NCBI GenBank assembly: GCA_017416885.1 | Contig: JAFQAM010000280.1 | Span: 1 to 35,081 of the forward strand | DNA length: 35,081 bases | Source: Clostridia bacterium | Lineage (GTDB): Bacteria; Bacillota; Clostridia; Oscillospirales; CAG-272 | Direction of reading: 5' to 3' | Shown: positions 24,607 to 25,319 of the stretch, piece after piece | Position numbering within the stretch: the first letter of the stretch is position 1 | Layout of the letters: each line of letters starts with the position of its first letter | Position numbers and translations under genes: made by a program | The notes under the pieces: generated by a model | Databases searched by the model: none | Seen by the model: the letters and a program-made list of their open reading frames with translations, nothing else | What the model was told of the DNA's origin: nothing

Positions 24607-24636
24607 TTGACATCAGGCGTTTAACTGTGGTAAAAT
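24607..24636 (+). promoter_or_regulatory. Sigma-A promoter with an extended -10
   Basis: TTGACA (24607-24612), 18-nt spacer ending TGg, TAAAAT (24631-24636). Confidence 0.5.
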
Positions 24637-24647
24637 AAAAAAGAATT

Positions 24648-24725
24648 AGGGGAAGACACCCATAACAAAAAACGAAAATTCAAATAGCAAATCAAGACAA
24701 GGGGGCGACACCCATAGAAAAAAAC
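24648..24725 (+). repeat. Two 26-nt direct repeats (SD-like G-run, GACACCC, ATA, A-run) spaced 52 nt apart
   Basis: aggggaagacacccataacaaaaaac (24648-24673) and agggggcgacacccatagaaaaaaac (24700-24725). Confidence 0.85.
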
Positions 24726-24875
24726 ATTATTGTTATTGATGAGCAAGGAAATGAATATGAGGCTACCTATTTAAAAAGGGCTAAAGGTCTGATAAAAAAT
24801 GGCAGGGCACGCTTCATAAACGAGAATACAATATGCCTTGCGTGTCCGCCAAAGGAATATTTGGAGGATAATAAT

Positions 24876-25319
24876 ATGGAAAATAAATCTGCAAATAAAT
24901 CTGAAATCAAAACAGAAAACAATTTAACCGAAAGAGAAATTTTTGAGCAAATAGTTGCGCTACAAAAGCAAATCACCGAAAACAATGCAAATTCCTTGCA
25001 TAGATTAGGCGATGTAATAGACAGCGCTTGCGCAGACGAAAACGAAGCGAGAAGCGAACAGGTGTCAGAGATTTGCAATGTGTTTTCTCAACGGGAGCAT
25101 AATTTAAAAATTATGCTTGAATTTTACATCAAAATGTACGAAAATGTAAGAAAAAACGATGAAGAAAGAAAGGCTGATTTGATAAAGAATGCCTTTTCGG
25201 AAATCGCTTCAAAAATCAACAATTCAGACTTGCCTTCCGAGGATAAGTTCGCAGCATTTGGTGATATTACATACTCAATTAAAGAATTGGTTAATGAGAT
25301 ATTAACCTCTTCAAAATAG
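24876..25319 (+). CDS. Helical hypothetical protein. The frame stays open 210 nt further upstream (from 24666) and encodes a PLMP/RRXRR-like segment without a canonical start
   Basis: ATG 24876 sits 8 nt after GGAGG. The upstream in-frame extension reads ...IIVIDEQGNEYEATYLKRAKGLIKNGRARFINENTICLACPP... with no ATG, GTG or TTG before 24861. Confidence 0.6.
   Translation: MENKSANKSEIKTENNLTEREIFEQIVALQKQITENNANSLHRLGDVIDSACADENEARSEQVSEICNVFSQREHNLKIMLEFYIKMYENVRKNDEERKADLIKNAFSEIASKINNSDLPSEDKFAAFGDITYSIKELVNEILTSSK

Follow-up and report, generated by a model that had tools for sequence, protein, structure and literature searches.

The window analyzed here is a 35,081-nucleotide stretch of DNA from a Clostridia bacterium (contig JAFQAM010000280.1 of assembly GCA_017416885.1), and the element under study is one small gene together with its leader. 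The gene lies at 24714–25319 on the forward strand, as do its promoter and leader, ends with a stop codon at 25317–25319 and encodes a product of 201 residues from an unannotated family, named "hypothetical protein" in the sources. A promoter at 24607–24636, proposed in an earlier reading made from the letters of the DNA (hereafter the sequence-only reading), was confirmed: it consists of TTGACA, an 18-nt spacer and TGgTAAAAT with the TG of an extended −10 element (11 of 12 matches), and the transcript is predicted to start near 24643. Aligned relatives carry a TATAAT-type box at an equal distance from the first leader module. A hairpin terminator at 25333–25356 (10 pairs, 6 of them G-C) is common to this gene and to the convergent gene downstream. 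The locus has the appearance of a single-gene transcription unit, whose 5′ end would fold as two tandem copies of one RNA module. Among sequencing runs, only metatranscriptome contigs from three studies (85–95% relatives) span the leader and the N-terminal domain (N-domain), one of them reaching into the promoter; such contigs cannot reveal transcript ends, strand or level, and say nothing firm on the transcript start.

The reading frame is uninterrupted from 24666 to 25319, as the sequence-only reading had stated with coordinates that all proved correct, and its earliest canonical starts are TTG 24861 and then ATG 24876, with none before 24861. A six-frame search of 40 related genomes returned 12 homologous loci, in each of which the match began exactly at the equivalent of ATA 24714, and the same arrangement was found again in 80 species-level loci, a recurrence far beyond chance. 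The whole protein matched 1,699 protein clusters at 90% identity and the 50-residue N-domain alone matched 650 clusters at 50% identity, with relatives in at least 445 species genomes, all of uncultured gut or rumen Clostridia. The N-domain, of about 45 residues, is nearly invariant and is the best-conserved part of the protein. Among 70 distinct sequences the summed column entropy at codon positions 1, 2 and 3 was 9.8, 6.5 and 30.2, a pattern that indicates a translated frame, and stop codons interrupted the extension in none of the relatives found. The comparison establishes the upstream extension as coding, in a protein under strong purifying selection in hundreds of species, and the extension very probably begins at an ATH triplet (ATC, ATA or ATT; AUH in the RNA).

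Homology begins exactly at ATA 24714–24716 in all relatives, and the Shine-Dalgarno sequence AAGGGGG (24699–24705) stands 8 nt before this codon, with a G-run that is invariant in 66 aligned loci and doubles as the 5′ strand of the hairpin of the second leader module. Over the 80 species loci and the window, the codon at this position is ATC in 59, ATA in 17, ATT in two and ATG in three, i.e., AUH in 78 of 81. Distant relatives found through the RNA motif (L108, L113, L114, L119, L121, and L122) read ATG at the same codon, which marks the position as the true initiation codon. On the predicted transcript, 38 of the 72 distinct ATH loci have no in-frame ATG, GTG or TTG upstream. Another 18 have a canonical codon three codons upstream that abuts the G-run at an unusable spacing and is the source of the "MTPIEKN" starts chosen by gene callers, and in the remaining loci in-frame canonical codons are scattered and non-conserved. 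Non-AUG initiation at ATA 24714, which the sequence-only reading had raised as one of three possibilities, is thereby borne out in the absence of a conserved alternative start, as well as comparative data allow. One exception in register was observed in L042 (450–600), where an insert of about 40 nt, including a GC-rich hairpin, separates the second module from the conserved N-domain codons, and the usual ATH is consequently out of register with the protein.

Two 26-nt direct repeats, described from the sequence alone, were confirmed with their distance of 52 nt and lie at 24648–24673 and 24700–24725; even with three mismatches allowed, the 2.33-Mb assembly contains no further copy. They are the cores of larger folds whose outer stems the sequence-only reading had missed; its suggestion that the repeats might be an RNA motif was upheld by covariation. 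Each module consists of an outer stem around a GGG/CCC hairpin, followed by an AUH triplet and an A-rich strand. Domain 1 spans 24640–24685 (model R1, 57 bits, E 1e-11): in its outer stem P1, GAATT at 24643–24647 pairs with AATTC at 24677–24681, enclosing the hairpin at 24649–24661, AUA at 24662–24664 and the A-rich strand at 24665–24673. In the family P1 is a 7-bp stem that begins a few nucleotides past the −10 box and is free to change in sequence as long as pairing is kept. In a model-fitted alignment of 101 distinct sequences, both sides changed in all seven pairs, with 159 such cells vs. 54 in shuffles, and the covariation score was 0.39 vs. 0.13 in shuffles and 0.06–0.13 in slid controls (0 of 500 shuffles as high for either measure); the covariation picture was unchanged in an alignment not fitted to the structure. 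The fold of domain 1 is thus established by covariation. One loop nucleotide also covaries with the nucleotide just past the A-rich strand (C-G in 24, U-A in 23), which hints at a small pseudoknot, a pairing not kept in the window's own clade.

Domain 2 (24691–24740) repeats this design over the start of the gene, as indicated by the minimum-energy fold and by compensatory changes. Its outer stem P3 joins AUCAAGACAA at 24691–24700 with UUGUUAUUGAU at 24730–24740, i.e., codons 6–9 of the gene, and encloses the hairpin at 24701–24713, the start codon and the A-rich strand at 24717–24725. The minimum-energy fold of the window contains P3 (z −2.81; 0 of 200 shuffles as good), 82.7% of P3 cells are paired overall, and in several lineages synonymous changes of valine codons are matched in the spacer (ATCTA/TAGAT, ATTTA/TAGAT, ATCGA/TCGAT, GTTTAC/GTAGAC, and ATCTG/TGGAT). 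Anchored alignments were used for these analyses: with a crude whole-leader MAFFT alignment RNAalifold recovered only two small hairpins, and an all-pairs covariation scan was too noisy. Taking both domains together, a structured tandem leader RNA is highly probable.

Scans with Rfam 15 returned no family at 24640–24750, either at E up to 10 with sensitive filters or at gathering thresholds, and a whole-genome search with RF00522 (preQ1-I) left the locus unmatched at E up to 10. The leader is an undescribed, well-covarying candidate regulatory RNA absent from Rfam. The best preQ1-I candidate in the own genome lies elsewhere (G000:C177:2886–2934; 29.7 bits vs. a 39-bit cut-off, E 4.5e-4) and is unrelated to the locus. 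The domain 1 covariance model matched only this locus in the own genome and had matches in 28 of 151 genomes sampled from the order. Among 29 RNA loci that were fetched, 24 have an N-domain open reading frame (ORF) directly downstream, whatever the C-terminal part; the other five comprise two clear module copies before unrelated genes and three weak matches (L130, L132, and L134; E 0.02–0.09) that are probably due to chance. Some genomes carry three tandem modules rather than two, e.g., L122 (1240–1390) and L125 (minus strand, about 1430–1580). A different, non-helical C-terminal protein (…NFNARDFHF…) was noticed in these two loci, joined to the N-domain in L122 and following it in L125.

The AlphaFold2 model of the protein runs from the N-domain through a disordered linker (residues 44–69) to a four-helix bundle. 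The N-domain is encoded at 24714–24851 (46 codons, the last of them Cys-Pro-Pro), has a β-β-α-β-β fold and was modeled alone with a predicted local distance difference test score (pLDDT) of 82. When this model was aligned exhaustively against 48,161 representative PDB chains, the top five were all N-termini of IscB or IsrB, i.e., the region of their PLMP domain: HfmIscB (9k2z_A; Z 6.9, root-mean-square deviation 1.9 Å over 43 residues, chain residues 2–46), TbaIscB (9k30_A; Z 6.3), DtIsrB (8dmb_P; Z 5.7), OrufIscB (9nvu_P; Z 5.0) and a further IscB (9liq_A; Z 5.0). The N-domain of initiation factor 3 (IF3) came next at rank 6 (1tif_A; Z 3.7, 4.2 Å, 8% identity), and mitochondrial IF3 matched at Z 3.1. 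Foldseek gave probabilities of 0.89–1.00 for nine IscB/IsrB entries with the N-domain; with the whole-protein model it returned nothing at E 0.001, the helical part resembling only generic bundles. At the sequence level the family profile finds the PLMP-motif stretch of TbaIscB (E 0.016), and the Pfam RRXRR profile (PF14239), which the sequence-only reading had named, does match over its positions 1–35, if weakly and below the gathering score (E 0.054; 13.8 bits vs. a cut-off of 25). Neither Pfam, NCBIfam nor the AlphaFold2 model revealed a RuvC, HNH or other nuclease domain in the family protein. The earlier description of a PLMP/RRXRR-like extension without RuvC or HNH therefore agrees with the sequence, profile and fold evidence, which establishes the relationship of the N-domain to PLMP as one of fold and supports kinship at the level of fold and distant homology. 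RRXRR matches above the curated cut-off were found neither in the own genome nor in 40 relatives, so that the N-domain is not a fragment of a resident IscB. Pfam IF3 did not match the protein at E up to 10, and the literature searched held no description of a free-standing PLMP-like protein.

Several further features of the N-domain coding region were observed. Synonymous sites are nearly frozen at 24786–24851 of the window (codons 25–46) across 70 species, with GGT in 70 of 70, CGC in 70 of 70, AGG and ATA in 69 of 70 each and CTT in 68–69 of 70; many of the frozen sites lie within codons 25–34 and 40–45. RNAalifold proposes a GACC/GGUC-CCC/GGG stem within codons 17–26. In one species (L059, protein P0017, 298 aa) the N-domain is duplicated in tandem in one ORF, the second copy being preceded by translated remains of the second module (…KGATPIEKN…) and the first copy having no leader modules.

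The linker contains a second ribosome-binding site. ATG 24876–24878, codon 55, which the sequence-only reading had noted for its good Shine-Dalgarno sequence and from which the gene had been called, is a conserved internal start that would give the helical domain alone; the gene itself extends upstream to 24714. Across 76 loci this codon is ATG in 71, GTG in four and TTG in one, and GGAGG (GAGGAG in one lineage) lies 6–8 nt upstream, mostly 8, in all 76. The Shine-Dalgarno sequence is encoded as xxG-GAG-GA, with leucine always TTG and glutamate always GAG; at three other sites of the N-domain (E2, E14 and E37) glutamate is mostly GAA, which does not hold for E10 or E16. The comparison establishes conservation of this internal ribosome-binding site. 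A hairpin at 24845–24868, in which UCCGCCAAA (the Pro-Pro-Lys codons) pairs with UUUGGAGGA, is predicted to sequester GGAGG at 24863–24867: in local context the predicted pairing of GGAGG with the Pro-Pro codons (CCNCC) had a mean probability of 0.93 over 67 loci, and in predictions of the full 5′ mRNA the sequestering hairpin dominates in 63 of 68 loci. RNAalifold also proposed a competing 11-bp stem that joins codons 30–33 with codons 43–46. The N-domain of L125 is encoded by an ORF of its own, about 66 codons long and with an ATA start, that overlaps the start of the next gene, and in a few family members the same linker and internal site are followed by unrelated C-terminal parts. Judging from conservation and thermodynamic prediction, it is likely that the internal start is used and that the locus makes two products.

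The shorter of these would be the C-terminal four-helix-bundle domain encoded at 24876–25319, modeled by AlphaFold2 with helices at residues 73–108, 111–146, 149–170 and 175–199 and a pLDDT of about 80–90. No Pfam or NCBIfam family matches the helical domain, and a protein atlas search with the C-terminal part returned hypothetical proteins only, with scores below 0.8. A homodimer prediction for the helical domain scored 0.01 and was not used as evidence either way.

A scheme that joins these elements can be proposed on the model of IsrB. The PLMP domain of IsrB contacts the tandem terminal hairpins of its ωRNA, one of which holds the Shine-Dalgarno sequence of the isrB ORF, and Hirano et al. 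noted that this contact may regulate IsrB expression and that the PLMP domain has an IF3-N-like fold (PMC9581776). At the present locus the hairpin of the second module would hold the Shine-Dalgarno sequence, and its AUH triplet, ATA 24714, would serve as start codon. From this weak start, enclosed in RNA structure, translation would yield the PLMP/IF3-N-like domain, the disordered linker and the four-helix bundle. The PLMP-like domain may then bind the hairpin modules of the leader, including the one that bears the Shine-Dalgarno sequence and the start codon, and when bound would set its own translation and, via coupling, that of the short product. The non-AUG codon may keep basal initiation low and sensitive to IF3. 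The internal GGAGG and ATG 24876 in the linker would be held in a hairpin by the Cys-Pro-Pro codons, which ribosomes arriving from the upstream start would most likely open, giving the helical domain alone. Since the locus presents the IsrB geometry in minimal form, with a PLMP-like ORF behind Shine-Dalgarno-bearing tandem hairpins, autogenous translational control is the favored interpretation. Binding of the PLMP-like domain to the leader of its own gene, with control over the weak start there, is, by this analogy, a plausible step to which we would give a little less than an even chance, and the scheme as a whole (two-module leader, non-AUG start, internal start, and autogenous control) is in our view the best explanation of the locus, and about as apt to be right as wrong.

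Several observations weigh against this scheme. The interaction between RNA and protein is inferred from homology and gene arrangement, and the P-L-M-P motif of strand 2 is absent from the family, which has EYEAT in its place (I/L-G-x-T in distant members), besides the RRXRR score under its cut-off. Formal covariation is only modest for P3 and for the 2-bp loop-to-tail pairing. The sequestration of the internal Shine-Dalgarno sequence is a thermodynamic prediction, and in the window the competing stem of codons 30–33 and 43–46, stem A, dominates (0.79 vs. 0.16 for the hairpin), with GGAGG still paired (probability 0.71). Moreover, two copies of the motif stand before unrelated genes. At L135 (1440–1560; G036:C41, minus strand) the gene immediately downstream encodes an unrelated lipoprotein; domain 1 is present there as one copy, the promoter layout is the same, and the 3′ strand of P1 runs into the AGGAG Shine-Dalgarno sequence of that gene. 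At L124 (250–420; G084:C15) the element resembles domain 1 but has an altered hairpin (…GACTTCC). The gene behind it is unrelated, and the N-domain profile finds no gene in this genome, which is 97% complete; this would fit a factor other than the PLMP-like protein. The rival explanations draw chiefly on these two copies, for one of which no N-domain gene was detected in the genome, and the leader also has traits that recall a riboswitch.

According to the first of these rivals, the two modules act as aptamers that recognize a small molecule or an ion; binding of this ligand would stabilize P1 and P3 and hide the Shine-Dalgarno sequence and the start codon, so that the protein is regulated and is not the regulator. 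Invariant unpaired nucleotides lie within variable, covarying stems, and the A-rich strand after a G-C hairpin, together with the covarying loop-to-tail pair, recalls H-type pseudoknot aptamers such as preQ1-I. Small aptamers usually occur as tandem copies. The overlap of P1 with the Shine-Dalgarno sequence at L135 and the presence of the motif in G084 are also what a riboswitch would lead one to expect. Yet the motif occurs almost solely with a single protein domain, one without a role in metabolism or transport, none of the known riboswitch models matches it, including RF00522 at E up to 10 per genome, the hairpin loop of 6–7 nt is too short for a preQ1-I pocket, and the PLMP precedent supplies a protein ligand. 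We regard a riboswitch as fairly unlikely, but as a serious rival. A second rival dispenses with a dedicated ligand: the fold would present or limit the ribosome-binding site, the ATH codon would tie expression to the ratio of IF3 to ribosomes, as the AUU of infC does, and the upstream module would be a 5′ stabilizer or a ribosome standby site. IF3 discriminates against AUU and AUA starts, and the non-AUG codon is kept in 78 of 81 loci together with an otherwise optimal Shine-Dalgarno sequence, optimal spacing and A-rich codons 2–4; only a few nucleotides separate the beginning of module 1 from the predicted start of the transcript. This explanation leaves unaccounted for both the two or three elaborate modules with invariant loops that are kept across families of the order and the tolerance of ATG at the same position in some lineages, and we judge it to be quite unlikely.

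The two remaining rivals concern the reading of the gene itself, and both are already contradicted by the comparative data. Translation might start at the first ATH, 24662, with an upstream ORF coupled to the second start, as the sequence-only reading had suggested: in the window ATA 24662 does begin a 25-codon frame that ends at 24739 and overlaps the second ATA, and the first module, like the second, has a G-run 8 nt ahead of its ATH. The two ATH triplets, however, are 41–62 nt apart (remainders modulo 3 of 31, 24 and 19). A frame opened at the first of them overlaps the start in 40 loci, is fused in frame in 18 and stops early in 13. Because this spacing shows no frame preference the upstream-ORF reading was rejected; the ATH of the upstream module is ATG in none of 74 loci, the peptide is not conserved, and the region covaries as RNA. 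We consider such coupling very improbable. A further candidate, −1 frameshifting at A-AAA-AAC, was also rejected, given that no conserved upstream frame feeds the site and that the modules are spaced without frame preference. Finally, the extension might be a decaying remnant that has lost its start, the true gene being only 24876–25319; gene callers do choose ATG 24876 or TTG 24861, and a strong Shine-Dalgarno sequence is present there. Decay is extremely improbable in view of the purifying selection described above: the N-domain is the best-conserved part across 650 clusters, has no stops and shows a coding-type codon-position pattern.

The surroundings of the gene vary, with at most about 16 of 80 loci sharing any one neighbor. 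In 10 of the 80 loci a gene of the XRE helix-turn-helix type lies no more than 1.5 kb away, upstream or downstream of the family gene, and in the window an XRE-TPR gene lies at 22201–23352, about 1.3 kb upstream.

Gene callers truncate the genes of this family at the internal ATG or pick spurious codons in the hairpin loop, and a conserved domain has thereby been hidden in hundreds of gut species. A family that keeps AUC, AUA or AUU as start codon inside a repeated, folded RNA would be a natural system, of a rare kind, in which to study how non-AUG initiation is regulated in Firmicutes, and its leader adds a new covarying candidate regulatory RNA that is not in Rfam. IscB and IsrB are the ancestors of Cas9, and a free-standing PLMP-like domain beside tandem hairpins that bear a Shine-Dalgarno sequence makes the regulatory function proposed for their PLMP domain, and its origin, directly testable in a much simpler setting.

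Compared with the PLMP domain of IscB and IsrB, the N-domain has the same β-β-α-β-β fold of about 45 residues, the top matches aligning to chain residues 1–53 with an identity of 21–28%, and the basic helix pattern R-A-x-x-L-[VL]-K-x-G-[RK]-A is common to both. As in IsrB (PMC9581776), the ORF directly follows tandem hairpins, of which the last contains its Shine-Dalgarno sequence; binding is here predicted. Unlike IscB and IsrB, the family has no RuvC, bridge helix, HNH or part interacting with a target-adjacent motif (TAM), its partner being a four-helix bundle; it has EYEAT in place of the PLMP motif and a non-AUG start, and its leader is of about 100 nt vs. the 200–300 nt of a guide-bearing ωRNA. 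One could speculate that the leader and its nuclease-free PLMP-like protein belong together as a dedicated RNA-protein module with an evolutionary relation to the PLMP-ωRNA hairpin contact. PLMP would then have arisen as an IF3-N-derived binder of Shine-Dalgarno hairpins that controlled translation and was later recruited by RuvC nucleases, the present family being a surviving free-standing form and its AUH start reflecting IF3-type scrutiny of the start codon; we give this scenario only a small probability. With the preQ1-I riboswitch (RF00522) the leader shares a short G-C hairpin and, behind it, an A-rich strand whose last nucleotide is C, a possible loop-to-tail pairing, tandem occurrence and Shine-Dalgarno occlusion. 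It differs in its loop of 6–7 nt vs. 10–12, in an extra closing stem and in the lack of a link to queuosine genes, and RF00522 does not score the locus.

Autogenous control of translation through the leader is known from several systems, among them infC, which is autoregulated through its AUU start codon, thrS, whose operator contains two mimics of the anticodon arm, and the hairpin bound by the MS2 coat protein. Like infC, which encodes IF3, the family has a conserved AUH start within an otherwise good ribosome-binding site and encodes a domain whose fold may be IF3-N-like. In contrast to infC, its protein has no IF3 C-domain and no Pfam IF3 match, AUA, AUC and AUU, and sometimes AUG, are used, and the start lies within a structured module, present in several copies, of a kind that infC does not have; dependence on IF3 is here putative. 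The sequence and fold of the module match no curated leader family. As in the operators of threonyl-tRNA synthetase (ThrRS, thrS), MS2 coat and ribosomal-protein leaders, repeated hairpin modules are found in the gene's own leader, the last one overlapping the ribosome-binding site, and the protein belongs to a fold for which contacts with RNA hairpins are known, with binding here putative. We classify the locus as a combination of known kinds, i.e., a putative autogenous leader operator, a PLMP-like domain and a probably regulated non-AUG start.

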